Positions 11,712-30,835 of a DNA stretch of 32,517 bases are shown one piece after another (the first letter of the stretch is position 1; every line of letters begins with the position of its first letter). The DNA lies in assembly GCA_020343595.1 (NCBI GenBank), contig CP070802.1:1044814-1077330 (forward strand), read 5' to 3'. The position numbers were made by a program, and so were the translations under genes. The DNA comes from a candidate division WOR-3 bacterium. GTDB taxonomy: Bacteria > Hydrothermota > Tepidihabitantia > SM23-42. The notes under the pieces are model-generated. The model was not told the origin of the DNA. It saw nothing but the letters and a program-made list of their open reading frames with translations, and made no database searches.

Positions 11712-14138
11712 CTATTTCTTTTTCTTGGCTTTTGCCTTTTCTTCTTCTTCGGTCAGGACCTTGATCGTATGTTCGATCTCGTCTTTTGTCACTTTCTTTC
11801 GTAATTCTTCGATATCCTGCATCGTTTTTTGAAAACGTTGTCCTTCTGCGGCGCTTATCCATTCGAGCAGCAATCGTTCGGGCCGGATTTCCCATTTTTC
11901 CAGTTTATCCCAGAGTTTTTCGACACGCTTCTGGGTCCAGCGGTTCGCGTCGATATAGTGGCAGTCAACGTAGTGACATCCGGATACGACGACCATGGGC
12001 GCGCCCTTTTTGAAGGCGTGGAGGACGAATTTTTCATCGACCCTGCCACTGCACATCGTTCGGATCAAACGCTGGTTCGGCGGATATTGAAGTCGCGCGC
12101 CGCCGCATGTGTCGGCGCCAGCATAGGAACACCAGTTGCAGGCAAAGACGACTACCTTCTCCTGAGGATCTTCAGCAAGGTGGGCGTCGATTTGAGTTAT
12201 GAGCTGTTCATCCGTGAAGTGCTTCATTGTCAAAGCGCCAAACCGGCACTCTGCGGCACATGTACCGCATCCCTTGCACAGGGCTTCGATATAGGAAATC
12301 GTCTTCTTTTTCGGATCAACCGTGAATGCTCCGTATGGACACACCCTGGAACATGTTGCACAATATCTGCAAAGATCAGTATTCAACGTGGATGTGATCG
12401 CTTCCAGTTTTACCTTCCCTGCAGAAAGCAGTGTTTCGGCTCTGGCCGCGGCCGCGCTTGCCTGGGTCACCGAGTCCTTGACGTCCTTCGGTGCCTCGGC
12501 ACACCCTGCAAAATAGATCCCGGTCGACGGCGCATCCACCGGTTTTAGTTTCGGGTGCGCTTCCATGAAGAAGCCGTCCGGCGTTTTTGAGAGCGTGAGC
12601 AACTGTTGAACCTCGGGCATATCGAGTCGAGGGGTTACGCCGACAGACAGCACCATCATGTCGAATTCATGTTCTTCGATCTTGTTGGAGGTGGTGTCTT
12701 CGACCATCACCTTCAGGTTGCGGGATTTGGGGTCTTCGGCGATCTCTCCGGGAATGCCCCTGATGTACTGAACCCCTGCTTCCTTGCTCCGTTTGAAGAG
12801 GTCCTCGAAACCCTTGCCGAACGCCCGTATATCAATGTAGAAAACCTTTGCCTGGATATCCGGATAGTGGTCTTTCAGCAGCAGTGTGTCCTTGATCGTA
12901 TTCATACAGCAAATATTACTGCAGTACGGCTTACCGATCTTTTCACAGCGCGAGCCCACGCATTGTACAAAACCCACCGTCTTCGGCCTCTTCCTGTCGG
13001 TAGGACGGATGAAGTGACCGTCAGAGGGCCCTCCGGCTGACAACAGCCGCTCAAATTCCATACTCGTTACGACGTTTTCGTATTTCGTGTAGCCGTATTC
13101 CTGCAAAATTACCGGGTCGAATACGTCCATTCCTGTTGCTACGATTACGGTGCCGACCTTGAATTCGAGCGTTTCGTCTTTTGCATCGTAGTCAATGCAT
13201 TTCTTGTCGCATTTTTCGGCGCACTTGCCGCAGGCAATTGGATTGGTGCCCAGACAGCTTTCCATATCGATCAGAGATGCCGACGGCACGGCCTGGGGGA
13301 ACGGGATGTAAATGGCTTTTCTTGACGATAACCCCTGCTGGTACTCATCCGGAACGACGACCGGACAAACTTCGGCACAATCGCCGCATGCGGTGCACTG
13401 TGTCTCGTCTACGTAACGTGTTCTCTTGAGAACCTTAACGTCGAAGTTACCGACGTATCCTTTGATCGACTCGACTTTGCTATTGGTTAGGAGCTTTATT
13501 TTGGGATGTCGACCGACATCCATCATCTTCGGGCCGAGTATTCATATCGCGCAATCCATCGTCGGATACGTCTTCGCCAGCTTGGACATCAAGCCGCCAA
13601 GCGATGGTTCCTTCTCGACGAGGTATACCTGGTAGCCAGCGTCAGCCAGATCGAGCGCCGACTGCATCCCGGCTATCCCACCACCGATCACCAGAGTTGC
13701 TTTTTCGACTGGTATTTCCTTTTCATCCTGGGGTTGCAGGTACCGAGCTCGGGCCACGTACGCCTTCATGATATCCTTGGCTTTCGTCGTTGCTGCCTCG
13801 CGGTTGCCCATGTGGACCCACGAGCACTGCTCCCGGATATTCGCCATGTCAACCAGATATGGATTCATACCCACCGAAGCGACGCATTCCCTGAAGGTTG
13901 GTTCGTGCATGCGTGGCGAGCAAGCGGCGACGATCACCCTATCGAGTTTCTCTTCCTTGATCGCCTTCTTGATTTCGGCTTGGCCGGGTTCCGAACACAT
14001 GTAGCGGTTCTTGGTGCTGTACACGACATTCCCGAGCTTCTTGGCATCCTCGACGACAGTGTCGATATCGACTGAGCCGGCAATGTTTGTGCCGCATTCA
14101 CAGACAAAAACGCCGATCTTCAAATCATCCTTCGGCAT
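11712..14138 (-). CDS. hdrA: Selenocysteine-containing HdrA fused to C-terminal MvhD (~808 aa, Sec199)
   Basis: ORFs 13542..14147 and 11712..13526 are in one frame joined by TGA 13542-13544 (TMDCAI-U-ILGPKMMDVGRHP). VFVCECG, GGGIAG, QCVGSR..YCSNICC, ferredoxin motifs, C-terminal CNWCSYAGAD/GCHYVDCHY. Confidence 0.92.
13504..13521 (-). promoter_or_regulatory. Putative bacterial SECIS element
   Basis: GGAUGUC-GGUC-GACAUCC perfect 7-bp stem starting 20 nt after the UGA. Confidence 0.8.
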
Positions 14139-14160
14139 CTTGATCACCCCCTTTCTGGGT

Positions 14161-15240: not shown

Positions 15241-15741
15241 TTATTTATCATCCTTTGTTACACTCTGCGGGTCTTCGAGTATTTCCTTCAGCTCGTCGAT
15301 CGGTATGGTTTTGAGCGGAGGAAGACCCAGCTCCTGCCTCCGTCTGCTAACAGCTGATGTAACCGTGACGCTGACGCCGGTTTGCGCTATATTCTCCGAG
15401 AGTTTCGCAAGACTTGCCGGTGCTTTCTGTCGCTGTACGGCCATATTCTTTAAGGCGATGATTACTTCGATCGGACGGACATCCTGCGGACAGCGCTCAT
15501 AACATGAATAGCAGTTCGTACACAGCCATATTGGTGAATCTTCACCGGTCAATGCTTCTTCCATGCCCAGCAGCGTCTTTAACAGAATGACGCGGGGGTT
15601 GAATTCCTCGGTGAATCGTGCCGCCGGGCACACCGCAACGCATGCGCTGCATTGGTAGCAGTAGTTGTGGTGTTTGCCACCCTGGATTTTATTCAGTTTC
15701 TCACGAAATCGAAAGTCAACCTTTATTTTCTCCTTGGCCAT
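15241..15741 (-). CDS. hdrC: Heterodisulfide reductase subunit C
   Basis: CYQCSACVAVCP and WLCTNCYSCYERCPQ; adjacent to hdrB. Confidence 0.92.
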   Translation of the reverse strand: MAKEKIKVDFRFREKLNKIQGGKHHNYCYQCSACVAVCPAARFTEEFNPRVILLKTLLGMEEALTGEDSPIWLCTNCYSCYERCPQDVRPIEVIIALKNMAVQRQKAPASLAKLSENIAQTGVSVTVTSAVSRRRQELGLPPLKTIPIDELKEILEDPQSVTKDDK

Positions 15742-16889
15742 TAAGTATCCTCCAATGCATCGGCGATCAGCGTAACCAACTGGATCGTCTTGATCTTTGC
15801 CTCTTTGCCGGTCTTTTCATCGTTCATAGCGCACTGGAAGTGTATCTCACATTTAGGACAGGAGAGAACCAGTAGATCAGCTTTGGTTTCTTTTGCCTCG
15901 GTGAGCCGGGCCCGTTGGATGCTCTTTGAATAGGTCGAACAGTTCATCCATGCGCTGACGCCACAGCATATCGCGCGCTCTCGACTCCGCGTCATTTCGT
16001 TCAAGCTCAATTCCGGGACAGCAGCAATGGCTTTCCTTGGTTCATCATAGATTCCAAGGTGCCTGCCGAGCCGGCAAGGATCCTGAAAGGTTACAACTTT
16101 TTTTAGATTCTTGAATTTCAATTTCCCGTCGGATATGGCGCCGCTGATTGTCTCGGTGATATGCTCGACATCGAAATCAGTACTGAAATACTTGGGATAA
16201 TCGATTTTGAAGGTGCGATAACCTTCCGGGCATGAGAAGACGATTTTCTTGGCACCGGATTTCTTTATCTCTTCGATGTTGTGCCGTGCAAGTTTCTCAA
16301 AATTCTCCATGTCACCGCTCCAGAGGAGGTCATGACCACAACATCTTTCCTGGGGAAGGACAACCGGCGTAATACCCAAATGATTGAGGATCTTTATACT
16401 TGATCTGGCGGCCTGAAGCGTGTTGACCTTGATGTCGCTGAACAGAATATCGAAGTAGGGCAGACAGCCGACAAAATAAAGCAACTCACCTTTCTGTGTT
16501 GTTTTCAGGTTGCTGTCAATCCAATCGAGGCGTTTTTGTTCCAGCTCAGGTGTTGTCATTATGCGCATCAACGATTGTGCTGCGCCGCCGTGGGAGCAGA
16601 GTGCTTGCTCCCCGATCTTTTTTGCTTCAAGGCGCGTCGTTAGCGTCAGGCCGATGTATTCGATCGCGGCCGGGCAACGTTCATCACATAACTTACAGGT
16701 CAGACATGCCCAAATATTCTTGTCCTTCAATAGATCGAGATCGCCGCTCCTTATTGCTTTGTTCACTAGTATTCGCGGTGAATATCCATGGTTGTACCGT
16801 GATACCGGACAGGTACCCGTGCACTTGCCGCATTCCATGCACAGATATGCTTTTGAATCCTTGATGGCTTTGGCGATCTTGCTATTCAT
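15741..16889 (-). CDS. HdrD/GlpC-like Fe-S oxidoreductase (2x[4Fe-4S] + two CCG domains)
   Basis: CMECGKCTGTCP, CLTCKLCDERCP, FVGC..CCGH..CPEG, DPC..CCG..CPKC. ATG 16889 overlaps the mvhD stop. Confidence 0.88.
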   Translation of the reverse strand: MNSKIAKAIKDSKAYLCMECGKCTGTCPVSRYNHGYSPRILVNKAIRSGDLDLLKDKNIWACLTCKLCDERCPAAIEYIGLTLTTRLEAKKIGEQALCSHGGAAQSLMRIMTTPELEQKRLDWIDSNLKTTQKGELLYFVGCLPYFDILFSDIKVNTLQAARSSIKILNHLGITPVVLPQERCCGHDLLWSGDMENFEKLARHNIEEIKKSGAKKIVFSCPEGYRTFKIDYPKYFSTDFDVEHITETISGAISDGKLKFKNLKKVVTFQDPCRLGRHLGIYDEPRKAIAAVPELSLNEMTRSRERAICCGVSAWMNCSTYSKSIQRARLTEAKETKADLLVLSCPKCEIHFQCAMNDEKTGKEAKIKTIQLVTLIADALEDT

Positions 16890-17388
16890 TTTCAATCGCT
16901 TCGCTGATGGCACCCAGCCGTTTCTTTATTGACGATGGTCCGAGCCTTCGGATCGTATCGGTGAATTCCTGGGCGACCCTTGCGAATTTGGTCGCTTCAG
17001 CCGATGATATCCAATCGAGTTTGAGACGTTCCTTCTCGATGCCGAGCATCTCGGTGAGTTTCTCGGTCACCTTGTGCACATCCGCGGCTTTTCGCGCGCC
17101 GAACATGTAGTGGCAGTCCTCAAAATGGCAGGTGGCAACAAGAACGCCGTCCGCCCCCAGTTCGAAGGCTTTCAATACAAAGGATGGCGTCACGCGCCCG
17201 CCGCACATCACCCTGACGATCTTTATGTTCGTTGGGTACTGCAACCTGGAGACCCCGGCACCGTCTGCTGCCGGGTAAGAACACCAGTTACAGCAGAAGG
17301 CAACGATCTTGGGTTCGAAGCCTTTGCTGGAGCGTCGGGTAGTTGAACGGCCGGATCGCTTCTTCGTTTTCTTAGCAGCTTGTTTCAT
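16882..17388 (-). CDS. mvhD: MvhD-like [2Fe-2S] protein with basic N-terminal extension
   Basis: FCCNWCSY, VRVMCGGRV, CHFEDCHY, WISSAE. Confidence 0.92.
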   Translation of the reverse strand: MKQAAKKTKKRSGRSTTRRSSKGFEPKIVAFCCNWCSYPAADGAGVSRLQYPTNIKIVRVMCGGRVTPSFVLKAFELGADGVLVATCHFEDCHYMFGARKAADVHKVTEKLTEMLGIEKERLKLDWISSAEATKFARVAQEFTDTIRRLGPSSIKKRLGAISEAIENE

Positions 17389-17450: not shown

Positions 17451-20400
17451 TCATCCTTCAAACAACGCCTCTAATTGAGCTTCGATCTGTTCGCTTCGGA
17501 AGTGCTTGAGGTCGATGGCGCCGGTTGGACATGCAGCGACACAAGTACCGCAACCCTTACAGAGCGCTTCATTGACGCGTGCGGCAAAACCGCCGTCTTC
17601 TTTTTCAACCAATTCTATTGCGCGGAACTCGCAGACTTCGGCACACCGGCCGCAGCCGCGGCAATACTCTTCGATCACCGTCGATGTTATCGGTGCCAGG
17701 GTGATCTTATCGCGGCTGAGCAAGGCAGCAACTTTGGATGCAACAGCAGACGCCTGGGAGATCGAATCACCGATATCCTGGGGGAACTGACAACAACCAC
17801 ACAGGAAAACGCCTTCGACCGTCGTTTCCACGGGACCAAATTTCGAGTGACGTTCCAGGAAGAATTTATCGGGACCGCGCGGAACCTTGAATAATTCGGA
17901 AAGATGGGCGGAGTCGGCGGCGGGAACCATTCCCACCGAAAGCACGACGAGGTCGACCGGAATGGTAATGTCGGCATCGATATCCGACGACGGGATGGTG
18001 ACGGCTTCTGCTCTGCCCTTGCCAGTGATTGCCGGCTCGCCTTCGTACGGCAAGAAGAGGACACCAAGTTCCCTTGCCTTGCGATACATCCGTTCGGCGC
18101 CTTTTGAATACACCCTGACGCCGCGGTTGAGAATTGCCACATCGATTCCCCTTTCCCTCAGATAGATCGCCTCCTTTATCGCTGCCTGGCAGCAATAGCG
18201 CGAACATCCAGGGTTTCCGTCGTCCCCTCGCGAACCGACACACTGGAAAAAGGCGACGGATCTTATGTTATCGATATCGCCTGAAAGTATCTTCTGTTCC
18301 AACTCCATGTTGGTTACGATATTCGGGAACTTGCCGTAGCCAAAGCACTTTTTTGGATCATAGAGTGCCGATCCAGTGGCTAGCACGATAGCGCCGACCG
18401 TATATTCATTTTCCTTTGCTTCGCGTTTCACCTTGACCTGGAAGTTGCCCACGTAACCAGTGACATCAAGGAGTTCCGTGGAAGTCAGTAGCTCACCGCC
18501 TGCTTTTGTGAATTCAGCGGTGAGTTTCTCCATGATATCCTTTCCTTTACGAAAACTTGGATAAATGCTCGATAGATGCGATACGAGGCCACCGGGAACC
18601 GGCAATTTCTCGATTACTTTGACGCTAAAGCCGCGCTGTAACAAATCGATCCCGCATCGCAGACCAGTGATGCCGGCACCGATGATGGCGACATCCCGGT
18701 TAACCGATAGTTCTTTCATGAAAAGCGGCGCCAGCTTTCGGACCCGCGCTACCGACATCCTGACCAGCTCCTTTGCCTTGTCGGTCGCCTTTACCGGTTC
18801 CTTCTGATGCACCCAGGAACATTGATTTCTGATATTCGCGATGTCAAAGAGATACGGATTGAGACCAACTGCAGTCAATGAATCCTGGAAGCTCATTTCA
18901 TGGGTCTTGGGTGTGCATGCGGCGACGACGACCCGGTTCAGTCTGTGCTCGGCGATCCTCTCCTGAATCTGATGTTGGGCTGTCTCGGAACATGCGAAGG
19001 TGTAGTCTTCTGCGAATACGACATCGGGCAGCATCTTTGCGTATTCGACCACGCCTTTGACATCAACCACCTTTGAGATGTTCGGGCCGCAGTGGCAGAC
19101 AAAGACACCGACCCTTGGTGGGCCCGACACGTCAATTTGTTCGATCTCTTTCTCCTCGATTGGAAGTTCATGCCCTTCCAGGAAACACGCCGCCTTGACC
19201 GCGGCACCACTGGCCTCGGCGATCGAATCGGTGATGTCCTTTGGTCCAGTAGCACAACCGCAGACAAGAATACCTTTCTTCGTTGATTCGAGTGGCATGA
19301 TCGCAGGCTCTGAATTCTTGAAAAAACCATCGTCATCGATCTCGATATCGAGCACTCCGGCCAGTTCTCCGCAGCCTTTCGAGGGGATCAATGCCGATGA
19401 TAGGCATACGGCATCGAACGTCATCTTTCCCGAGTGTCCTTTCTCGTCTTCGTAATGTATGATCAAATTCCCCTGGCCATCGTCAATTACCTTTGAGGGT
19501 TTGCCCTTGACATACTCCACGCCCTTCTCGAGAGAACGATTGTAGAATTCCTCAAATCCCTTGCCAAAGGCTCTGATATCAATGTAGAATACGACAATCC
19601 TGGCGTCTGGATAGTGCTCTTTCAGGACCAGGCTGTCCTTGATGGTGTTCATACAGCAAATACGGCTGCAATAGTTGATATCATGACGCATGTTACGAGA
19701 GCCGACGCACTGGATGAACGCAAAACGCAAGGGCTCCTGTAATTCCTTTCCAAGCGGGAGCTCACCGGAACTCGGGCCATCTTCGCTCATGAGCCTTTCG
19801 ATCTCAAATGAAGTATAGATATTCTTGAAGCGTTTGTATCCGTACTCACTGGCCTCCTTTGGATCGAGATAATCGACACCGGTGGTCACGATGATCGACC
19901 CTACGTCCAGATCGACAAATTCGTCGGTCATATCGTGGACAATTGCATTCGGTTCGCACACCTTCACGCATTCCATGCATTCTGAACAGCCGGCACAGCT
20001 GAGGCATCGATTCGATTCTTTCTTTGCCTGTTCTTCTGAGAATCCCTGGGCGACTTCTTCGTAACTATTCTTCGCCTTATCCACGTCCAGCATGGGCATA
20101 GCCGTTCTTTTCTCAGCCCTTATGTCCTCTGGAATTTCAATATCCTCATCCTTCACCCGATCATCTTTTTTCTTTCTGTTTTCCTTGAGATCCACGCCTC
20201 TGATGAACCGATCGATCGATTCGGCAGCTTCTTTTCCTGCAGCAATCGCCTCGATAACCGTTGCCGGACCGGTGACCGCATCACCTCCGGCAAAGATACC
20301 GGGAATGCTCGTTTGCAGCGTATCCGGGTCCACTGCGAAAGTTCCCCAACGGGTCAACTCAAAATTCTCTTCTTTGGCCAGGAATGAAATGTCGGCCGCC

Positions 20401-21848
20401 TGGCCGATCGCCATTATTACCATATCGAGGTCCATGGTGAATTCCGAGCCTTCTATAGGTATTGGTCTTCTCCGGCCCGAGGCATCAGGTTCGCCAAGCT
20501 TCATTTTGATGCATTCCATGCCCGTGACTTTGCCATCTTTGCCAAGGATCTTCGTAGGATTAGTCAGGTAATGGATCGTGATGCCCTCTTTTTCCGCTTC
20601 GACTATCTCCTCTTCATTTGCGGGCATTTCCTGGCGCGAACGTCGGTAGACAATGAACGCTTGTTCGGCGCCGAGACGTAGTGCGGTGCGCACCGCATCG
20701 ATTGCCGAATTACCACCGCCAACGACGGCCACTTTCTTACCCACCGGCGTCTGGGGATTGTGGACCGCCTTATTGAGAAATTCAACACACATAGTGACGC
20801 CCTGCAGATCTTCGCCTTCGATCCCCATCTGTTTCTCTTTGGCTGCACCAAGTCCGAGAAACACAGCCTTGTGTTCCTGCTGCAGGTCCTTGATGCTGAA
20901 ATCCTTGCCTAGGGCAGTATTGGTCTTGATCTCGACACCCCAACTCTCTATGTAATCCAGATCTCGCTGGAGGGCGGCTTCGGGCAATCTGAAGCGCGGT
21001 ATTGCCCAGTACAAAAGGCCACCGGGATGATCAGTGGCTTCGAACACGGTCGGACGATATCCTCTCCTGGCAAGAAAATACGCGGCCGACAAGCCGGCAG
21101 GACCGGCGCCGACGACGGCAACCTTTTCTTTGTTCAGTTCAGGACTGGGTGGTGGGGTTTTCTGTTCGTGATCAGAAATGAACCGTTTGAGCTGGGCAAT
21201 TGCCAGCGGTTCATCTACGTCCCTTCGTTTGCAGTCCGATTCACACGGATGGGTGCACACGCGGCCGCAGACAGCCGGGAATGGGTTATCCCGGCGTTCA
21301 AGTTCGAGCGCTTCCTGATACTTGCCCTGTGAAATTAGCGCGATATATCCCTGAGCATTGACTCCTGCCGGACATGAGTACCGACACGGTGGTGAGCCCT
21401 TTTTCTCAATCAAGAATTTGTTGGGAACGGCCTGGGGGTACTGACGATAAATTGCCGCCCGCTTTGAAAGTGCCAGTTGAAACTCATCTTTAATATGGAC
21501 CGGGCAAACCGTTGGACACTCGCCGCATCCCGTACATTTGTTCCAGTCGACAAATGTTGATTTGCGTCTGACTTTCACTTTGAAATCCGGTGCCTCACCC
21601 TCGACGCCGACAACTTCGCTGTTGGCGAATATCTCAATGTTTGGATGCCGACCGACATCCATTAGTTTGGGGCCGAGGATTCAGCCCGTACAATCCATCG
21701 AGGTGAAGATCTTATGGATCTGGGATGTTCGACCGCCCAGGCATGGGCCACGCTCGACAAGGTAAACCTTGAAACCAGCATTGGCCAAATCCAAAGCGGA
21801 CTGAACACCAGCCACGCCTCCACCAATGACGAGTGCTCCTTTTGGCAT
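17451..21848 (-). CDS. Selenocysteine-containing HdrL-type protein (HdrA module with GltD/NfnB-like insertion + second HdrA module; ~1465 aa, Sec56)
   Basis: A 55-codon in-frame segment [14 protein letters not shown]...SMDCTG precedes TGA 21681-21683, then [13 protein letters not shown] continues into the 1403-aa ORF. ATG lies 3 nt after the gamma-subunit stop. Confidence 0.92.
21642..21661 (-). promoter_or_regulatory. Putative bacterial SECIS element
   Basis: UGGAUGUC-GGUC-GGCAUCCA 8-bp stem with one U-G pair; loop 27 nt after UGA, same as in the other Sec-hdrA. Confidence 0.8.
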
Positions 21849-21851
21849 AGT

Positions 21852-22418
21852 TTATTTATTTCCTTTGTTTGATTGCTTCTTCGCTAAGATCTCTTTTCCA
21901 TATTCATAGCCGCGCTCGAAAGCCTTCAGATTAAGCGGCAGTGCCTTTTCCGGGACCAGGCCGGGCAGGGCCTTCTTCATACTATCGTAGGTGACAAGAT
22001 TGGTTATGGCCGTAAAGAATCCGAGCATAACCACATTCGCCACAATTTTGATCCCCAGTTCCTCCGCAAATCGTGTTGCCGGTATCGCATGGGCGAGGAT
22101 CTTCCCGCGGGGCGGTTTGGGTTTAACGAGGTCCTCATCGTATAACAGCATTGCCTCTTCACCCATTTCTGATTCAAACTTATCATATCCTGCCTGGGAC
22201 ATGGCAACCAGGACATCAGAATTTGTGATGTAAGGGTACAGGACCTTGCTTTCGGATATGACGAGTTGCGAACTGCATGCACCACCACGCGCTTCCGGTC
22301 CGAATGATTGACTCATGGTTGCATACTTGCTATCAAAGATCGATGCTGCCTTACCGGCGATTATCCCGGATCTGATAATGCCCTGACCTCCGTAACCGGC
22401 GAATCTGATTTCAGCCAT
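21852..22418 (-). CDS. 2-oxoacid:ferredoxin oxidoreductase gamma subunit
   Basis: EIRFAGYGGQG, SFGPEARGGAC, ANVVMLG; GGAGG SD before ATG 22418. Confidence 0.92.
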   Translation of the reverse strand: MAEIRFAGYGGQGIIRSGIIAGKAASIFDSKYATMSQSFGPEARGGACSSQLVISESKVLYPYITNSDVLVAMSQAGYDKFESEMGEEAMLLYDEDLVKPKPPRGKILAHAIPATRFAEELGIKIVANVVMLGFFTAITNLVTYDSMKKALPGLVPEKALPLNLKAFERGYEYGKEILAKKQSNKGNK

Positions 22419-23187
22419 TTCCACCTCCCGTCTTTTCAGGGAGCGAACCATGAGGCGTGAATGCATCACCGAGTATTTTCGTGTGCTGGATATTGTATGA
22501 ATCGATGAACGTTGCTCGTTCCTTGTCGGTGAATTTTCCGACGATGATCTTCCCGTCAGCCGTTATTGCTGCGTTCCGCGGGTCCTCGTCGTTCTTCACG
22601 GTCGAATTTTCAAAGTAGAATTGAAGAAGTTCCGAATCGAGATCGGTGACGTATCGGTAATAGCTGGGACCGGGTGCCAGTATTTCGATCATGGACATCC
22701 CTCGTTTGTGCAGTGCCTCGGCGATGGATTTGGCGAGTTCGGCGGTATGCAAAGCAGTCCATCTCGCCGTGTATACTGCTCCACAGGAATTACCGAGGTG
22801 CGGGAAATTGAAGGGTTCTTCGAATGTAGAATAAGGTGAGAATGCTTCAGTTACAACTGGCACCGATTTGCCCGCGACCTTATGGTAGACAAAGCTATTG
22901 ATACAGAGCACGAGCAGTTCCATGTTTCTCCGCGTTCCATGAACAAAGTGATTTCCTCCAAGTGTCATGAGATCGCCGACGACAGGAATGATCTTCAGCT
23001 CCGGGTTACCAAGTTTCAGGCCCGATCCAAAGGCTATTGCGCGTCCGCGCGGTACCTGGAAATAATCGACACCGAGGGACTTGACCGTCTCGGGCTCAAA
23101 GGGGATATCTGATGGAATGCTGATCTTGTTCCGATCCAGGCCAGATTGCTCTATGCCTTTATTGATTGCTTCGATGATTGAATTCAT
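22411..23187 (-). CDS. Degenerate 2-oxoacid oxidoreductase beta-like subunit (no Fe-S cysteines, no intact GDG motif)
   Basis: Aligns with 24426..25304 (GRAIAF, GGNHFVH..RRN, E.PFN.P.L, GAVY.AR) but the cofactor motifs are replaced. Confidence 0.85.
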   Translation of the reverse strand: MNSIIEAINKGIEQSGLDRNKISIPSDIPFEPETVKSLGVDYFQVPRGRAIAFGSGLKLGNPELKIIPVVGDLMTLGGNHFVHGTRRNMELLVLCINSFVYHKVAGKSVPVVTEAFSPYSTFEEPFNFPHLGNSCGAVYTARWTALHTAELAKSIAEALHKRGMSMIEILAPGPSYYRYVTDLDSELLQFYFENSTVKNDEDPRNAAITADGKIIVGKFTDKERATFIDSYNIQHTKILGDAFTPHGSLPEKTGGGNG

Positions 23188-24425
23188 TCCTTTAATTTGA
23201 ACCCTCCCTCAAAGACTGATTTCTCAAGCCTGGTTTTGAATTCGTGCACGCCTTCCATTGGTTTTTCCTGGTTTACTGCGAATTCGATCGCATCAGCAAC
23301 ATCGGCTGGATTGTGAACACCGGCACCACCGTGGGGAACGAGTACAACACTGGCGTGACCGTGTGCGCAACGGGCAACGTCGTAAACGACTTGTCCGTAA
23401 TTTATCTCGGGAACGACGAAGGCTTTTGTTTTCATCGCCAGTTCGTTGATCCGGTCATCAGGAAATGGCCAGACGGTAACAAGCCGCAGCGTGCCGACTT
23501 TTATGCCTTTTTGCCGGGCCATTTCGACACCCTTTACCGCGACGCGCGACGATATCCCGTATGATACTACGATCACATCAGCACCGTCGATCCCTTCTTC
23601 CTTCAATTCGATGATCTTGTCTTTGTTGATTCTGATCTTGTCAACCAATCTCCTTATGCAAGCACTCTTGTATTTTTCATCGGCAACCGGATGGCCGTTC
23701 TCGTTGTGAACGACGCCCGTGATATACAGATTTAATCCTTCACCAGCCTTAGCCATTTTTGGCACAAGATCCGGACCGGGGCTGAAGGGTCGGTAATCTG
23801 CCGCCTTGCCAGTGAACAGCCTCCTGGGTTCAACATCGATCTTTTCGGCTTCCGGAATGACAACCTTCTCAGTCATGTGACCAACGCATTCATCCGACAT
23901 TATCATGACTGGACAGCGGTACTTCTCGGCGAGGTTGAACGCTTTGACCGTGTAGTCAAACATCTCCTGCGGCGAATCCGGTGCAATGGCGATGACCTCA
24001 TAGTCTCCGTGTGAACCCCATCTTGACTGCATCATGTCAGCCTGGCCGGTCTTGGTCGGTACACCGGTTGACGGACCGCCACGCTGGATGTTAAGCAGGA
24101 CAAAAGGTGTCTCGAGCATCGCTCCGAAGCCGATCGCATCCTGCATCAGCGAGTAGCCAGGGCCAGAGGTTATCGTCATTGTCTTGGCTCCTGACCAGGC
24201 GGCGCCAAGTATGGCCGAAATCGACCCCAATTCGTCTTCCATCTGAATGAACACGGTTCCAACTTTTGGTCCGCGGTGACACACTGCTTCAAATGCTTCG
24301 GTCGATGGCGTAATAGGATAACCGGCCACGAATTTGCATCCCGCGGCCAGGGCGCCATAACCCGCAGCAACGTCACCGTCTATGTAGTAGACACCCGTCA
24401 GCACACTCTTTGGATCAGCTTTCAC
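23184..24425 (-). CDS. 2-oxoacid:ferredoxin oxidoreductase alpha subunit (intact motifs)
   Basis: GYPITPSTE, QMEDE, TSGPG, QRGGPSTG, RWGSHGD; GTG start. Confidence 0.93.
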   Translation of the reverse strand: MKADPKSVLTGVYYIDGDVAAGYGALAAGCKFVAGYPITPSTEAFEAVCHRGPKVGTVFIQMEDELGSISAILGAAWSGAKTMTITSGPGYSLMQDAIGFGAMLETPFVLLNIQRGGPSTGVPTKTGQADMMQSRWGSHGDYEVIAIAPDSPQEMFDYTVKAFNLAEKYRCPVMIMSDECVGHMTEKVVIPEAEKIDVEPRRLFTGKAADYRPFSPGPDLVPKMAKAGEGLNLYITGVVHNENGHPVADEKYKSACIRRLVDKIRINKDKIIELKEEGIDGADVIVVSYGISSRVAVKGVEMARQKGIKVGTLRLVTVWPFPDDRINELAMKTKAFVVPEINYGQVVYDVARCAHGHASVVLVPHGGAGVHNPADVADAIEFAVNQEKPMEGVHEFKTRLEKSVFEGGFKLKE

Positions 24426-25304
24426 TTATGCTCCCTTTTTTCCTTTTGGTCTCTTGCCGGAATCCCTTACTTCAGAAAGCCATTGATTATAGCGTTCCAT
24501 GTAGGAGGGCCTTTCACGGTCAACAAACTTGCCGCAGATGATTTTGGTTTGGAATCCGATCTCCAGGTTCTTCGTGTCTTCACCGTGTCGTATTTCGACG
24601 TTATCGTGATAGAACTTCATCATCTCAAGGCCGTCGCCGAGTCGGTTGATCCGGGAGTAGTACATGCCACATGGCGAGATGACTTCAACGACGGAGAACC
24701 CCTTCTTATTCAATGCTTCGGTCAGGGCATTTGTCAATCTGCGAATATGCAATGCCGTGTATCTTGCCACGTATACCGCGCCGGACGAATCCGCCAGATA
24801 GGGAATGTTGAACGGTGGTTCAACACAACCGTACGGTGAGGTCGTAGCATATGCTGCCAGGGGAGTGGTCGGCGCCACCTGCCCGCCGGTCATTGCATAG
24901 ATGAAGTTATTGACGCAGACGACCAGCATGTCGATATTGCGCCGTGCCGCATGAATGAAATGATTTCCGCCGATGGCGATCAGATCACCGTCACCCGAGA
25001 ATACAACGACTTTCGTCTTTGGGCTTGCGACTTTGATACCGGTGGCAAAAGCGATCGGCCGACCGTGTGTCGTGTGGAAGGAGTCGACCTTTACATAACC
25101 GGCAACTCTGCCGGTGCAGCCAATGCCTGAAACAATACTCACATTGTTGGGATCGATATTTGCCTTTTCGAGCGCAGAAGCGAAAGCGGTAACGGCCAGA
25201 CCGATCCCGCAAGTCGGGCACCAGATATGAGGCATCCGATCCATGCGGAGCAGATTTTCCATGGGATGTATTTCACTATTTGTATTGATTCTCTGGGTTG
25301 CCAT
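24426..25304 (-). CDS. 2-oxoacid:ferredoxin oxidoreductase beta subunit (intact motifs)
   Basis: WCPTCG, SGIGC, HTTHGR, GDGD...NNFIYAMTGGQ, SPC; TAATG coupling to the upstream alpha'. Confidence 0.93.
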   Translation of the reverse strand: MATQRINTNSEIHPMENLLRMDRMPHIWCPTCGIGLAVTAFASALEKANIDPNNVSIVSGIGCTGRVAGYVKVDSFHTTHGRPIAFATGIKVASPKTKVVVFSGDGDLIAIGGNHFIHAARRNIDMLVVCVNNFIYAMTGGQVAPTTPLAAYATTSPYGCVEPPFNIPYLADSSGAVYVARYTALHIRRLTNALTEALNKKGFSVVEVISPCGMYYSRINRLGDGLEMMKFYHDNVEIRHGEDTKNLEIGFQTKIICGKFVDRERPSYMERYNQWLSEVRDSGKRPKGKKGA

Positions 25305-26509
25305 TATGTACTCCCTTTCTTCCACTCAATGATACCACATTTTGTTTCGGTCATCAGAGATGCCTTTTCTGCTGCGGCGAGGATATCATCGGTGTATTCG
25401 ACACCGTTGTCGCCGTGATGCAAGAATAATACGTTTGCCTTTCCATAGGTATTCCGTTCAACTTCCTGAACGATCTGCCCGAAATTCATCTCAGGAACCA
25501 CAAATGCCTTCACCTGTTCTGCGAGTTCAGACACCCTCGCGTCCGGGAAAGGCCAAACCGTATTCAGTTTCAGGCTGCCGATCTTCATACCCTTAGCGCG
25601 CGCCTGTTCAACTGCCTTGAGCGCAGCCCTCGAAGACGATCCGTATGAGATTATCACTACTTCCGCGTCATCTGTTTTCGTTTCCTGGATGTCGACTATC
25701 TCATCCACATAATCGCGTATCTTCTTTACGAGTGGATGGACATTATACTCCTGGCATTCTTCAAACATGATCGGATAACCCCGGTCGTCATGGGTCAGGC
25801 CGGTGACATGAAAGCGGTAGCCCTGTCCGATATCGACCATTCGCGGGACAAAATCCTTATCCCTCTTGAATGGCAGATAACTGTCGCGCGGCCCATCAAA
25901 GTACCGGCGTGGTTCGATATGAATCTGGTCGGCAGAAGGAATGACAACTGATTCTTTCAGTTGAGCGATATGAGCGTCTGACATCAGGGCGACGGGAACA
26001 CGGTATCGTTCCGAGAGATTAAAGGCTTTGATCGTGAAATCGAACATCTCCTGGGCCGAGCTGGGAGCGTACGCGATTATCTCGTAATCGCCATGAGATC
26101 CCCAACGGGACTGCATGACGTCAGCCTGTGCCGGGTGTGTCGGCAGGCCGAGGCCCGGTCCGACCATCTGGACTTCCACTATTACACATGGCGTTTCAAG
26201 CATGACACCGAGTCCTAGATGTTCCATCATTAGTGAGAACCCCGGGCCTGAAGTTACGGTCATTGATTTCTTACCGGTCCAGGACGCGCCGAGAACCGCA
26301 GCGAGGGCAGAGACTTCGTCTTCCATCTGGATGAAAGTCGCGCCAACCTCAGGCGCTCGCTGTAGAAATCTTTGCGAGACCTCCAATGAAGGCATGATGG
26401 GGTAGAGGCCCAAGAAACGACAGCCGGCTGCTAATGCTCCTTCCGCGCATGCCTCATTGCCGCTGAGAATGTGAGAGCCGGTTAACACCCCGGTCTTATC
26501 TGATTTCAT
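25304..26509 (-). CDS. 2-oxoacid oxidoreductase alpha-like subunit with altered substrate-binding residues
   Basis: GNEA, QMEDE, TSGPG and RWGSHGD retained; YPIMPSLE replaces YPITPSTE and QMVGPGLG replaces QRGGPSTG. Confidence 0.88.
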   Translation of the reverse strand: MKSDKTGVLTGSHILSGNEACAEGALAAGCRFLGLYPIMPSLEVSQRFLQRAPEVGATFIQMEDEVSALAAVLGASWTGKKSMTVTSGPGFSLMMEHLGLGVMLETPCVIVEVQMVGPGLGLPTHPAQADVMQSRWGSHGDYEIIAYAPSSAQEMFDFTIKAFNLSERYRVPVALMSDAHIAQLKESVVIPSADQIHIEPRRYFDGPRDSYLPFKRDKDFVPRMVDIGQGYRFHVTGLTHDDRGYPIMFEECQEYNVHPLVKKIRDYVDEIVDIQETKTDDAEVVIISYGSSSRAALKAVEQARAKGMKIGSLKLNTVWPFPDARVSELAEQVKAFVVPEMNFGQIVQEVERNTYGKANVLFLHHGDNGVEYTDDILAAAEKASLMTETKCGIIEWKKGST

Positions 26510-26598: not shown

Positions 26599-28254
26599 TT
26601 AGAATACGTCTATCATTCTGGCTAGTGCAGCCTTGCCTCGATAGTCCGGTAAAATGATCGGTGCTCTCCTCGTACACTTCACTCCCGCCTGTTCAAGATT
26701 CTTAACGTATCTCTTCACGTGATCCAGTGCTATCTTGTTTTCACCCTTGTGCGCTTTCACGTACTCCGCAGTGCTCATTCCGGCACGCCGTCCGAAGACA
26801 AGGCAGTCGAGGGTAGAATTTCCCATCAAGCGGTTCTTGCCGTGCACCCCTCCTGACACTTCACCGGCTACCCATAATCCATCGACATTTGTCCTTCCTG
26901 CTGGGTCCGTTTCAATACCGCCATTTTGATAATGGAGGGTCGGGAAAACCAGTACCGGGTCCTTTCGTATGTCGATATCATACCGCTTGTACATCCTGAT
27001 CATTCCCGGGAATGCTTTCTCTATATAACCTTTGCCGTTCTTGATCTCGATCAAGGGTGTATCGAGCCAGACCCCGCGGAGCCCGGTTGGTGTGACGATG
27101 CCCTTATTGCGGACATAGCATTCTCTGATGATCGCCGATGCCTCGACGTCTCTCGGCTCCAGCGGGTAAACGAATGCTTCACCGTCTGCGTTCACCGGCT
27201 GCGCGCCGCTGCCCCGTAGTTTCTCGGTGAGCAGATAACCAACGATCTGGATCGGGTAGGCGGCTCCGGTTGGATGGTATTGCACAGCATCGATATCACG
27301 TAGTTTGGCCCCCACTCGGTATGCGAGCACGACGCCATCAAAGGTCGCGCCGTAGTGATTGGTCGTGGGAAATCCTCTTATGTGTAATCTTCCATAACCG
27401 CCGGTGGCGATGATCGTCGCCTTGGCTCTGACGATCTTATACTCACCGGTTTCGAGATTCCACAAAACCGCGCCGGTCACACGGTCGCCATCGGTTAAAA
27501 GTTCGATCGCGGGATAATGTTCCAGATAGGGAATTTCACGAGTCCTGAACTCATCTCTCAGTACCCTGAATTCTTCAAGTCCCGTGTAGTCACGGCACGA
27601 ATGCATACGCTTCACTGATAGCCCGCCCGCGAGTTTTTCCGCAAGGTCGCCACCTTCTTCACGGTCGAAGATCGCACCCAACTCACAGAGCCATTTCATG
27701 ATCAGCGGGGCATCTTCCACTAATGCTCTGGCGACGTCTGGCTTGTTCTCAAAATGACCTCCACCGATCGTATCGATGTAGTGTTTCATGACCGAGTCGA
27801 CTTCACGATCGGCCGCTTGTGTGCCACCTTCGGCCATTATCGAATTGGCATCACCGTGCCTCAATTTATTAGTCAACAATATTCGTTCGGTAGCAATACC
27901 GCTGTCATTTGCCCACAAAGCCGCAGAGGTACCAGCAAGGCCGCCGCCGATGATCAGTATGTCGGTGTCGTAATCGACCTGGGAGATATTCACCTCGTCC
28001 TGTTCGATCAGTGGGTATGCCTCGAGAAGATCGGCAACTTCGTTCGGTGCAAGGTTACCTTTGTTGGGTCCGACCTGAAGTTCGCGCTTACCGCCAGGAG
28101 CATAATCCGGGTGGATCCGGAGGACTTCGTCCCGTTCTTTCATCGTCATGGCGGGTGGTGTGTAGTTGATTCTCTTCTCACGTGTTTTGGTGACCTTGTC
28201 GATCTCTTTTCTGATATTCTCAGGGTAACCTTCAATGTATTTTAGTTCTGCCAT
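26599..28254 (-). CDS. Fumarate reductase/succinate dehydrogenase-family flavoprotein (TfrA/NadB-like, non-covalent FAD)
   Basis: IIGGGLAG, SIMAEGG, ATGGYG, QYHPTG, TEKLRG, PRD, HYQNGG, HGKNRLMGNS. Confidence 0.88.
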   Translation of the reverse strand: MAELKYIEGYPENIRKEIDKVTKTREKRINYTPPAMTMKERDEVLRIHPDYAPGGKRELQVGPNKGNLAPNEVADLLEAYPLIEQDEVNISQVDYDTDILIIGGGLAGTSAALWANDSGIATERILLTNKLRHGDANSIMAEGGTQAADREVDSVMKHYIDTIGGGHFENKPDVARALVEDAPLIMKWLCELGAIFDREEGGDLAEKLAGGLSVKRMHSCRDYTGLEEFRVLRDEFRTREIPYLEHYPAIELLTDGDRVTGAVLWNLETGEYKIVRAKATIIATGGYGRLHIRGFPTTNHYGATFDGVVLAYRVGAKLRDIDAVQYHPTGAAYPIQIVGYLLTEKLRGSGAQPVNADGEAFVYPLEPRDVEASAIIRECYVRNKGIVTPTGLRGVWLDTPLIEIKNGKGYIEKAFPGMIRMYKRYDIDIRKDPVLVFPTLHYQNGGIETDPAGRTNVDGLWVAGEVSGGVHGKNRLMGNSTLDCLVFGRRAGMSTAEYVKAHKGENKIALDHVKRYVKNLEQAGVKCTRRAPIILPDYRGKAALARMIDVF

Positions 28255-28268
28255 TACTCACTCCTTCC

Positions 28269-29027
28269 TTATTCCGGCTCTTTTTCGCGTTCGGTGTATA
28301 TCTTTCGAAGTTCTTCGGTCGAGCAACTGACAAGCTTGTTCATTTCGTCGGTGAATTTTCCTTCGGTGATTTCCTTTACCCTCTTTCTGAGGTGGTCCGG
28401 TACACCCAGGCCATAGCGCCCGAACATCCTTCTGCCGAGCTGGGCAACATGGTATTGTACGATCTCAGCAGGGCATCTCATGGCACAGAGGCCGCACTGA
28501 ATGCAGTCAAAAGAGATGTCTGACAGCCCGTCAAAATCACCGCGTATCGCAGCCTGTACGTAATCCATGACTTCAAGATCTTGCGGGCAAGCCTTCGTGC
28601 AAGTGTTGCATGATACGCATCTTGTCACTTCCGGATAATACCTGATGAAGACCGATGCTTCGTAAGGTTCCTTTGTAACGTCATAGATCGCTTTTTCAGC
28701 AGGAGTGAAAGGTATTTGGACCAGATACATTCCATCTTCGGCCCGGGTCTGGCATGCCATACCGGTCTGCAACTTGTAATCACCTTTCTTTCTGAAAACA
28801 GTAGCGCAGGCACCACAGAATCCTTGCCGACAGCCGACACCGCGCACAAACTTGTAGCCGGCGTACTCCATTGCCGTCAGTATTGTGAGGTCTGCCGGGA
28901 CCTTGTAGGCTTTTCCCATGATGTGAATCGTGATCCAGTTTTCTATGTCCTTCGCGTCGATTCCTGTCGTTGCTGCCTTATTCGCTTCTGCGATTCTGTC
29001 CATGATTGGGCTTTTATTGTCTTCCAT
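28269..29027 (-). CDS. SdhB/FrdB-like iron-sulfur protein ([2Fe-2S] + 2x[4Fe-4S])
   Basis: GCRQGFCGAC...ACQT, CVSCNTCTKACP, CIQCGLCAMRCP. Confidence 0.85.
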   Translation of the reverse strand: MEDNKSPIMDRIAEANKAATTGIDAKDIENWITIHIMGKAYKVPADLTILTAMEYAGYKFVRGVGCRQGFCGACATVFRKKGDYKLQTGMACQTRAEDGMYLVQIPFTPAEKAIYDVTKEPYEASVFIRYYPEVTRCVSCNTCTKACPQDLEVMDYVQAAIRGDFDGLSDISFDCIQCGLCAMRCPAEIVQYHVAQLGRRMFGRYGLGVPDHLRKRVKEITEGKFTDEMNKLVSCSTEELRKIYTEREKEPE

Positions 29028-29038
29028 TATTTACTCTC

Positions 29039-29986
29039 CTAATCTTCGATCAACGATTTGCTCTTCAGCAACGGCCTCGGATCGACGTAATTCTGCTCAA
29101 ATCCAAAGACATCCTTGTCCATGCCGAATGCGATCGTCATCAATTGAGTAATGTAGAATACCGGCATTTCTTCAAAATCAGGGTGCTTTTCCTTTACGGC
29201 CTGCTGACGCTGGTCCAGATTGAAAGCACACAGCGGACAGACCGTTGTCAATGCCTCTGCGCCCTTTTTGCGTGCATGCGATAGTATGTCATATGCTAAT
29301 TCAGCGACAATATATTTGTCTTTGACGGTCTGATAACTGCCGCAGCAAACTTTCTTGTATGGCGTGTCAATGACCGATACGCCGAGAGCTTCGAGAATAT
29401 CTTTCTGTATCGTCGGATCTTCGGGATCATCGATCGCGATCTCCTTAGGCCGCAGGATCATACAGCCGTAATACGGGGCGATATTCAGATCCTTCAGCGG
29501 TTTGGTTACCTTCTCGCGAATCTTCTCATAGCCCAGTGATTTCAATAACTCCAGGAAGTGTAGTACCTCGACATTGCCCTTGTAGTCTTCCTCCCGGTAC
29601 ATGAGTTCGTTGATCTTTTGCAGATCTTCAGCATTCTCCTTCATCCGCCGATTTGTGCTCTTCAGAGTATTGAAACACATTGAGCATAGAGTCACCAAGC
29701 GATTCTCATTCTTGACCAGCCCGTAATCATTCATTTCCTGAACCCGGATGAAATTCCGTACGGAAGCCACGTGATGGATCAGGTCATCTTGAGCAAGCGA
29801 GAAGACCGTGCCGCAGCAATTCCATCGGGGGATCTCGAGCAATTCTACACCGAGCGCGCGCGCCGTAGCGATCGCTGAGTTTTCAAAATTCTTGGCCGTC
29901 GTCTTCAACGTGCATCCCGGGTAATAGGGGAATTTCATATTGCCGGAGGATGTTGATTTTGTTTCTTTAGTATTGGTCGGATTCAT
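29039..29986 (-). CDS. hdrB: Heterodisulfide reductase subunit B
   Basis: YYPGC..WNCCG..CSMC and YYGC..CCG..CPLC; AGGAGG SD. Confidence 0.92.
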   Translation of the reverse strand: MNPTNTKETKSTSSGNMKFPYYPGCTLKTTAKNFENSAIATARALGVELLEIPRWNCCGTVFSLAQDDLIHHVASVRNFIRVQEMNDYGLVKNENRLVTLCSMCFNTLKSTNRRMKENAEDLQKINELMYREEDYKGNVEVLHFLELLKSLGYEKIREKVTKPLKDLNIAPYYGCMILRPKEIAIDDPEDPTIQKDILEALGVSVIDTPYKKVCCGSYQTVKDKYIVAELAYDILSHARKKGAEALTTVCPLCAFNLDQRQQAVKEKHPDFEEMPVFYITQLMTIAFGMDKDVFGFEQNYVDPRPLLKSKSLIED

Positions 29987-29996
29987 GTTCTTCCTC

Positions 29997-30404
29997 CTAT
30001 CCTGTGAATTTTCGGCAGGCGCTAACCAGCGCGATTTGCGGTAAACAGGCTATCTCTTCCTTGGGGATCGCTTTGATATCGATGTGATCTACGGCTTGTC
30101 GCAAGATGATCTGTCTCAGTGCCTCTGCCACTTTGGAGACGTCGATCTGGCGGGGACATCTGACCGTACACGTGAAGCATGAAGCACATACCCAGATCGC
30201 TTTGTGATCCAGCACCTCTTTCTGGCCCAGTTGAACGAGTCTCATCATCTGTGACGGCGTAATGTCCATTTCCGTAACGAGTGGGCAACCACCGGAGCAA
30301 GTGCCGCACTGTTCACAGAGGGTGATAACCTCTCCGCTAAGTTCATTGACTTTGTTCAAGAACTTTTCGTTATCGGGTGATATCTCAATCTTCTTGATCA
30401 TCAT
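29997..30404 (-). CDS. hdrC: Heterodisulfide reductase subunit C
   Basis: CEQCGTCSGGCP and WVCASCFTCTVRCP. Confidence 0.9.
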   Translation of the reverse strand: MMIKKIEISPDNEKFLNKVNELSGEVITLCEQCGTCSGGCPLVTEMDITPSQMMRLVQLGQKEVLDHKAIWVCASCFTCTVRCPRQIDVSKVAEALRQIILRQAVDHIDIKAIPKEEIACLPQIALVSACRKFTG

Positions 30405-30835
30405 GCCTCCTTGGCGGCTGCCTGTGTTTTCAATTCGAGTGGTCCCAATGCAGACATTTCGTCTATGAATTCGTTGACGACCTTCTGAAATTTACCGCCT
30501 TCGTTAGCCGAGATCCATTCCAGCCGTACACGTTGAGGAGCGATACCGAGTTCTTTCAGCAGGTTCTTGAGTAGTGCGATCCTTTTATGAGTACGGTAGT
30601 TTCCTGATACATAATGGCAGTCACCCGGATGACAACCAGCCACCAATACACCCCAGGCGCCTTTTTTCAAGGCATCAAGTATCAGCTCCGGGTCTATCCG
30701 GCTTGAACACATTGCTCGGACAATTCTGAAATGCGGTTTCATTTGGAGCCTCGAAGTACCGGCCGCGTCGGCTCCAGCATAGGAACACCAATTACAGCAG
30801 AATGCAATTATTTTGGGGACGGCGTTACTCTTCAT
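30401..30835 (-). CDS. mvhD: MvhD-like [2Fe-2S] protein
   Basis: FCCNWCSYAGAD, MCSSR, GCHPGDCHY, WISANEG; ATGA overlaps at both ends. Confidence 0.93.
   Translation of the reverse strand: MKSNAVPKIIAFCCNWCSYAGADAAGTSRLQMKPHFRIVRAMCSSRIDPELILDALKKGAWGVLVAGCHPGDCHYVSGNYRTHKRIALLKNLLKELGIAPQRVRLEWISANEGGKFQKVVNEFIDEMSALGPLELKTQAAAKEA

Follow-up and report, generated by a model that had tools for sequence, protein, structure and literature searches.

A 32,517-nucleotide stretch of the genome of a candidate division WOR-3 bacterium (contig CP070802.1, positions 1,044,814 to 1,077,330; here called the window, with positions counted from its first letter) encodes an HdrL-type protein on its minus strand, in a gene interrupted near its 5' end by an in-frame TGA (21683-21681). 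Comparison with related genes and genomes led us to conclude that this TGA is very probably the selenocysteine (Sec, U) codon of a 1465-residue protein that starts at the ATG at 21848. Two open reading frames (ORFs), one of 55 residues beginning with ATG (21681..21848) and one of 1403 residues (17451..21662), lie in the same frame on the minus strand, and the gap between them consists only of the TGA and six sense codons. When TGA was translated as U, 17451-21848 gave a single frame of 1465 codons with U at residue 56 and a terminal stop (17453-17451) that is also TGA. No further stop or frameshift occurred across these codons. The complete gene (17451..21848, minus strand), in which Pfam and NCBIfam recognized HdrA, GltD and ferredoxin domains, exceeds the database versions by 62 residues. 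Throughout the window, TGA codons bridging two open stretches of at least 45 codons had a coding-looking context in only two cases, HdrL and an HdrA-MvhD fusion gene described below.

The 55-codon head ends in SMDCTG and holds the GxGxxG motif that is absent from the 1403-residue ORF (Pfam FAD_oxidored at residues 6-42, GIDA at residues 6-59), just as the original prediction, made from the sequence alone, had described it. Codons 2-55 (21684..21845, minus strand) carry this flavin adenine dinucleotide (FAD)-binding motif as GGGVAG, together with Cys53 of a C53-x-x-U56 motif, and align to residues 145-196 of 5odc_A, the HdrA of Methanothermococcus thermolithotrophicus. The start codon (21846..21848, minus strand) can only be the ATG at 21848, because an in-frame TAA lies two codons upstream; orthologs begin M[PQ]KGALV at the same place. 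A Shine-Dalgarno-like AAAGGAA (21860..21866, minus strand) was read from the sequence 12 nt 5' of the ATG, within the end of the upstream porG-like gene, and in the ortholog loci a purine-rich AAGGA or GGAG precedes the conserved ATG.

The residue expected at the TGA was evident from homologs. A search with HdrL residues 1-400 as the query listed 120 protein clusters. Among these matches, the 26 closest (70-97% identity, 1401-1413 aa, 85% query coverage; two of them named "candidate division WOR-3") all begin MD[VA]GRHP and are therefore cut at the same TGA, as gene callers do at Sec codons; such breaks have been described for Sec-HdrA genes (PMC12054007). All 94 remaining full-length homologs listed (P0030-P0123) have Cys at the corresponding position, in the context DCxx-C-I..PK. 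Alignment to 5odc_A (query residue 4 at chain residue 145, E 3e-51) placed U56 at HdrA residue 197: the thioredoxin reductase (TrxR)-like FAD domain matched chain residues 145-290, and DCTG-U aligned with DCSIC. A third HdrA paralog, at the right edge of the window, has TGT (Cys) at the aligned codon.

Conservation of the TGA was examined by a six-frame search of 60 related genomes and the window's own (31 of the window's family and 30 of other families). TGA-type HdrL orthologs were present in 17 of the family's 31 genomes, the window's own included; the set comprised 15 loci at 80-100% identity, two more remote copies (61% and 67%) and two fragments at contig ends. The 30 genomes of other families yielded no TGA-type HdrL, only matches free of stops, and in a 150-genome sample of the phylum TGA was seen in the window's family only (3 of 42 match rows). 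Among the loci that were fetched, all 16 orthologs have TGA (21681..21683 in the window), and all 14 Cys-type relatives have TGT or TGC. Orthologs beginning at MDVGRHP without the upstream segment had been named in advance as evidence against a hidden N-terminus; instead, all 16 loci retain the head, the TGA and the hairpin described below. The head starts from the conserved M[PQ]KGALV in each (with TTG as start codon in L039), and its variation among orthologs is almost confined to third codon positions. One seeming ortholog without an N-terminus (L035, G016:C1:861321-865004; 79% identity) was rejected: a run of 100 N, either a gap in the assembly or a withheld stretch, covers its N-terminus, TGA and hairpin.

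This distribution bears directly on whether the gene could have decayed to a pseudogene, or the TGA could stem from faulty sequencing or assembly. A single in-frame stop would fit a nonsense mutation or a base error, and some of the related assemblies are fragmented metagenome-assembled genomes (MAGs). However, the identical TGA occurs in 17 genomes, single-contig assemblies among them; purifying selection acts on both of its flanks, which vary at third positions only; the 1465 codons hold no other stop or frameshift; and the second paralog, HdrA-MvhD, shows the same feature in 30 of 30 loci. We regard such an explanation as almost negligible.

Downstream of the TGA, a 20-nt spacer (21661..21680, minus strand; codons ILGPKL plus AU, read from the sequence) leads to a hairpin resembling a selenocysteine insertion sequence (SECIS; 21643..21660, minus strand), recognized by its centroid fold, its association with the TGA and its frozen codons. 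Its 7-bp stem pairs GGAUGUC with GGCAUCC around a GGUC loop (21653-21650), and the loop therefore starts 27 nt past the TGA. The HdrA-MvhD gene has GGAUGUC-GGUC-GACAUCC (13521-13504), also 20 nt past its TGA. The claims that both genes carry the same GGUC loop at the same 27-nt distance, and that the one A/G difference between the stems preserves pairing, thus proved accurate, since the differing G or A faces U in both hairpins. Allowing up to three mismatches, the 18-mer was expected 0.01 times in the window and seen at two sites, of which 13504-13521 matched on the opposite strand too. In the 2.37-Mb genome, these two are the only copies of the hairpin that follow a TGA. The centroid fold of the 54 nt past the UGA was a 7- to 8-bp stem with a 4-nt loop. 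The SECIS of Escherichia coli fdhF is likewise an intragenic stem-loop just 3' of the UGA, and its small apical loop (GGUC) contains G and U; compared with it, the WOR-3 loop lies further from the UGA, at 27 nt, and no bulged U is evident.

The hairpin was strictly associated with the TGA. With a 30-nt folding window, the 7-bp hairpin (−10.0 to −11.2 kcal/mol) formed in 17 of 17 TGA sequences and in none of 15 Cys sequences, which gave other folds (0 to −7.4 kcal/mol). At the level of loci, a 7-bp hairpin with a GGU loop was present in all 16 TGA-type orthologs and in none of the 14 Cys-type loci. Synonymous sites within it were also unusually constant. Among 13 orthologs (L029 was dropped for its cut 5' end, L039 as distant and L027 as equal to L026), four of the five hairpin codons GAT GTC GGT CGR CAT showed invariant codon use, compared with 12 of 142 other degenerate codons for invariant residues (Fisher one-sided p = 4.5e-4). 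The lone variable codon, CGG or CGA, yields U-G or U-A. When both paralog families were pooled (46 SECIS sequences, 42 distinct), 100% of 294 cells were paired; six stem pairs never vary, and one varies on one side (U-A 32, U-G 10).

A different reading of the locus, in which the TGA is a true stop, would leave a 55-residue peptide, with the FAD head as a small subunit, and a separate 1403-residue protein re-initiated at the ATG at 21662. Termination does always compete to some extent with Sec insertion at UGA, an ATG is present 18 nt past the TGA, and the split-gene model is the gene-caller output for all 26 of the closest listed clusters. Yet this annotated "start" has no preceding Shine-Dalgarno sequence and sits immediately 5' of the hairpin stem, whose freezing the split-gene model leaves unexplained. 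The split would moreover sever the Rossmann FAD fold, and would cut the CxxC motif between its redox residues, where 94 of 94 homologs have Cys; and all 16 loci have TGA at this codon, with no TAA or TAG among them. We therefore consider two separate products very improbable.

The same genome encodes the machinery required for Sec insertion, the absence of which had likewise been named in advance as evidence against recoding. The tRNA-Sec gene scored 75 bits (cut-off, 47), and ARAGORN called it tRNA-SeC with anticodon tca; it is adjoined by both selB (334 bits; cut-off, 242) and selA (544 bits; cut-off, 268). The selD gene (G000:C1:592310-593215, locus L012) scored 315 bits (cut-off, 125) and has an in-frame TGA of its own (VKCAG-U-ASKL), and selenophosphate synthetase is therefore a selenoprotein in this genome. 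The selD region 3' of that TGA can fold into a GC-rich stem with a GU-containing loop.

These genes also argue against a genome-wide reassignment of TGA, by which it would encode a standard amino acid, for example Trp or Gly (NCBI tables 4 and 25). Some uncultured bacterial lineages do use TGA-reassigned codes. In this genome, however, TGA is the commonest stop, more frequent than TAA or TAG: it ends 412 of the 1026 open frames of at least 300 codons, from which we conclude that it is not reassigned. HdrL itself is terminated by TGA, the aligned residue of the homologs is Cys and neither Trp nor Gly, and the genome has selB and a dedicated tRNA-Sec (anticodon tca). Reassignment is thus hardly credible. 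Taken together, the Cys homologs, the conserved TGA, head and hairpin, and the Sec machinery support the original prediction that a second Sec codon, beside that of HdrA-MvhD, hides the N-terminus of HdrL.

Several observations weigh against this interpretation. The fold energies of the 54 nt past the UGA were ordinary compared with shuffled sequences (z −0.46 and −0.44; 64 and 60 of 200 shuffles, respectively, were equally stable). The proposed covariation of the hairpin across orthologs was seen only as a one-sided change: the variable pair stays paired, as U-A or U-G, and there was no double-sided compensatory change in the stem among the 42 distinct sequences, which come from relatives that are not independent. 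Because of this lack of compensatory change, the RNA structure was deduced from synonymous-site conservation, and what supports the putative SECIS is synonymous-site freezing together with its strict link to the TGA, not covariation. Rfam at gathering thresholds gave no match over the window, and a permissive Rfam scan (E up to 10) of 21560-21760 gave three noise matches, two to small nucleolar RNA families and one to the cardiovirus cis-acting replication element (CRE). At the protein level, HdrL (P0001) scored 1001.5 bits, below the NCBIfam HdrA2 (NF040770) cut-off of 1100, as is expected because HdrL is fused and bears an insertion. An AlphaFold model of residues 1-1200 had a mean predicted local distance difference test (pLDDT) score of 87.1 and a predicted template modeling score (pTM) of 0.78, but pLDDT fell below 50 at residues 46-53.

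The following course of events would account for the recoding. The 7-bp GGUC-loop hairpin, 20 nt past the UGA, is predicted to bind and recruit SelB carrying Sec-tRNA(Sec). Sec would then be inserted at residue 56, and translation would continue to give the 1465-residue protein. U56 would be the second residue of the C53-x-x-U56 motif in the TrxR-like FAD domain, equivalent to Cys/Sec197 of methanogens. The HdrA "partner" is here fused in the same chain, with the first of two HdrA modules supplying CxxU and the second supplying the N-terminal Fe-S domain. We infer that U56 serves as a cluster ligand or as a selenylsulfide partner at this internal module interface.

The domain layout of the complete protein is as follows. 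Module 1 (residues 1 to about 905) comprises the FAD head with C53-x-x-U56 and an inserted ferredoxin domain, and has no N-terminal Fe-S domain. Within the inserted-ferredoxin domain sits, in turn, a GltD/NfnB-like NAD(P)H module (residues 144-651; 19896..21419, minus strand), identified by NF009410 (592.5 bits versus a cut-off of 516), by Pfam Fer4_20 and Pyr_redox_2 at residues 152-540 and by fold matches. A Foldseek search with the HdrL model retrieved the NfnB chains 4ylf_B (template modeling score [TMt] 0.81, 46% identity) and 5jca_L (0.79) and confirmed the HdrA-like parts. Since the closest structural match of the inserted module is NfnB, which is the bifurcating subunit of NfnAB, two bifurcation-type flavin sites are possible in HdrL. 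Module 2 (residues 910-1465; 17454..19121, minus strand, delimited by alignment) contains an N-terminal Fe-S domain with C918, C920, C953, C978 and C1010 as putative cluster ligands, a second TrxR-like domain lacking the Cys194/197 motif and a C-terminal 2x[4Fe-4S] ferredoxin domain; it aligned to residues 3-240 and 318-651 of 5odc_A, with no CxxC at the second TrxR-like site. The HdrA domain set, with N-terminal Fe-S and inserted and C-terminal ferredoxin domains, is complete, divided over the two fused modules. Because the modules share out the HdrA parts in this way, the chain is a self-complementing pseudo-heterodimer.

The same residue of HdrA has been studied in methanogens, where the C-x-x-C/U motif lies in the same TrxR-like FAD domain, with Cys197 in M. 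thermolithotrophicus (5ODC) and Sec197 in Methanococcus maripaludis (Hdr-Vhu-Fwd super-assembly; PMC13518236). In the former, Cys197 ligates the [4Fe-4S] cluster in the N-terminal domain of the other HdrA of the dimer (PMC9012536). In the latter, Sec197 appears bonded to the neighboring Cys in one state, and the authors (2026) leave the role of the pair unsettled (PMC13518236). The methanogen protein is a 650-aa homodimer subunit, whereas the WOR-3 form consists of two fused HdrA modules into which an NfnB/GltD-like part is inserted, and its SECIS-like element is intragenic, right after the UGA, unlike the archaeal SECIS in the 3' untranslated region. HdrAs that are fused or arranged in tandem show a complementary distribution of the N-terminal domain and the Cys197 motif (PMC9012536); the module order in WOR-3 HdrL is opposite to that of the archaeal fusions described in the same work. 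BamE of the class II benzoyl-CoA reductase of Geobacter metallireducens (bioRxiv 10.64898/2026.04.10.717634) is also a single chain of two HdrA-like units with permuted domains. It begins directly with the TrxR-like domain, and its Cys59-Cys62, corresponding to C53-U56, lie near an Fe-S cluster and form a disulfide in one state. BamE differs in having Cys rather than Sec and no GltD/NfnB-like insertion, and in being part of a tungsten-enzyme complex.

The second gene with the hairpin, the HdrA-MvhD fusion gene (11712..14147, minus strand; P0002), scored 1169 bits against NF040770 HdrA2 (cut-off, 1100). Its Sec codon is the TGA at 13544-13542 (U202), in the context TYPTMDCAI-U-ILGPKMMDVGRHP. 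Among its best 30 loci (77-99% identity, four families of the order or class), TGA and hairpin were present in all 30; 28 of the hairpins are identical, one has GGCAUCC and one has the loop GGGC. Nucleotide identity between HdrL and HdrA-MvhD peaks near the Sec codon, at 0.71-0.78 versus 0.42-0.69 in the flanks. In trees of a 148-aa segment, the two Sec paralog families formed separate clades, with a support for the split of only 51/11. We treated the hairpin common to both paralogs as a shared constraint; micro-conversion between HdrL and HdrA-MvhD around the Sec codon may be an alternative source of the likeness. Sec-HdrA-MvhD is more widespread than Sec-HdrL. Three more remote HdrA-MvhD homologs (G015:C62, G029:C105 and G017:C100; 63-66% identity) contain two in-frame TGAs per 193-residue match, which makes a second Sec site possible in them. 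Neighboring families also have HdrA-like genes of approximately 1020-1056 aa with one TGA, a class that is absent from the window's genome.

Beyond this lineage, HdrA has been among the known bacterial selenoprotein families since about 2007 (PMC1976440, Table 1). HdrL was defined as an HdrA/glutamate-synthase fusion followed by mvhD, with some members containing Sec (Strittmatter et al. 2009; PMC2702500), among them hdrL1 and hdrL3 of Desulfobacterium autotrophicum. The WOR-3 gene corresponds to this definition, being a fusion of HdrA with a glutamate-synthase-small-subunit-like NAD(P)H module and having an mvhD-like gene next to it (16882..17388, minus strand, directly 3' of HdrL; Pfam FlpD, 168 bits). 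By their description, HdrL1 and HdrL3 of D. autotrophicum HRM2 are the same kind of large HdrA/NAD(P)H-binding fusion, with mvhD next and with Sec members (PMC2702500), in a different phylum. A literature search found no paper on WOR-3 selenoproteins, and the text of the BSepDB paper mentions neither HdrA nor WOR-3.

To place the Sec site among its relatives, species-representative genomes were scanned with the HdrL alignment. This returned 77 loci, 16 of them with the motif, seven as TGA and nine as Cys. The seven TGA loci, all in other phyla, include the Desulfosarcina widdelii chromosome and several Thermodesulfobacteriota MAGs. In six of them, but in none of the nine Cys loci, there is a perfect hairpin with a stem of 7 bp or more; its sequence differs, being mostly CUGGUCG-AGGU-CGGCCGG, and it begins 5 nt nearer the UGA than the WOR-3 hairpin does. 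In four Thermodesulfobacteriota TGA loci (L109, L110, L112 and L123), the hairpin, CUGGUCG-AGGU/AGUU-CGGCCGG, arises from homologous codons, shifted 5 nt towards the UGA. The same HdrL Sec site thus appears, from these predicted hairpins, to have been given two different SECIS solutions. A tree of approximately 350 residues was computed for 41 rows, which were chosen subsets (9 of the 16 TGA loci, 16 of the 94 listed proteins and 12 of the 16 motif-bearing loci). In it, the window's Sec clade (8 rows, support 100/100) fell among Cys forms from the same phylum, away from the remaining Sec forms, and Sec and Cys rows were interleaved in at least four places. Since the tree is unrooted, no direction of change between Cys and Sec is claimed.

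The gene immediately upstream of HdrL (21852..22469, minus strand; Pfam POR) resembles the gamma subunit of 2-oxoacid:ferredoxin oxidoreductases, and its stop lies 3 nt before the HdrL ATG; a POR-gamma-like gene is found at this place in 14 of the 16 ortholog loci. Further upstream, 22411-26509 (minus strand) holds two tandem alpha/beta pairs of 2-oxoacid:ferredoxin oxidoreductases (POR_N plus TPP_enzyme_C, twice), which share the one gamma gene abutting HdrL. Downstream of HdrL follow mvhD, genes for three HdrB/C-like proteins (CCG or Fe-S) and HdrA-MvhD with its own Sec codon. In its gene association, the locus resembles the HdrAL/POR cluster of Syntrophobacter fumaroxidans (Sfum_0012-0018; PMC5947623), in which an HdrL-like gene likewise lies beside pyruvate/2-oxoacid:ferredoxin oxidoreductase genes; that complex was not detected in the proteome study reported there (PMC5947623). 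From the families involved, HdrL likely links NAD(P)H and ferredoxin with a disulfide-type acceptor of the HdrB/C-like proteins by flavin-based bifurcation or confurcation, and the ferredoxin for this reaction probably comes from the adjacent 2-oxoacid:ferredoxin oxidoreductases. The window as a whole is a dense island of Hdr-type modules. Thiol:fumarate reductase-like genes occur at 26599-29027 and 15741-16913 (both minus strand; TfrA-like, 308 bits, and TfrB-like, 145 bits, both under the curated cut-offs), and a Cys-type hdrA-mvhD-hdrC-hdrB set lies beside them at 29039-32517.

A broader proposal joins these elements: the window's family would have undergone an independent Cys/Sec switch at the HdrL site corresponding to HdrA residue 197, and C53-x-x-U56 would act as a selenylsulfide or Fe-S-ligand switch inside a single-chain pseudo-heterodimer that also has a second, NfnB-like flavin module and whose translation is coupled to that of a 2-oxoacid:ferredoxin oxidoreductase. 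The independence of the switch is suggested because the Sec clade falls among Cys forms of its own phylum and because its hairpin is nearly identical to that of the HdrA-MvhD paralog, unlike those of other phyla. As a whole, we offer this proposal tentatively and find it somewhat doubtful.

Sec-HdrA and Sec-HdrL are already known (PMC1976440, PMC2702500), and the presumed recoding mechanism is an ordinary one; the new elements are the lineage, with relatives named WOR-3, a SECIS sequence of its own and a misannotation that is systematic. The case is useful mainly as an annotation correction, and the architecture around the Sec site is modestly interesting. With the corrected annotation, a 1465-residue enzyme regains its FAD-binding head and its redox-active CxxU motif; public clusters record it as a truncated HdrL of 1401-1413 aa in 26 of the 26 closest listed. 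Without this correction, metabolic reconstructions of the uncultured WOR-3-related lineage would treat its main soluble Hdr-type complexes as defective, and its selenium requirement would be overlooked. For gene finders, the two paralogs with one common SECIS sequence provide a clean example. The bacterial, single-chain, NAD(P)H-linked HdrL is also another place to test the role of the Cys-Sec197 pair, and if the broader proposal were true, it would provide a single-chain system for studying Sec197 in flavin-based bifurcation.

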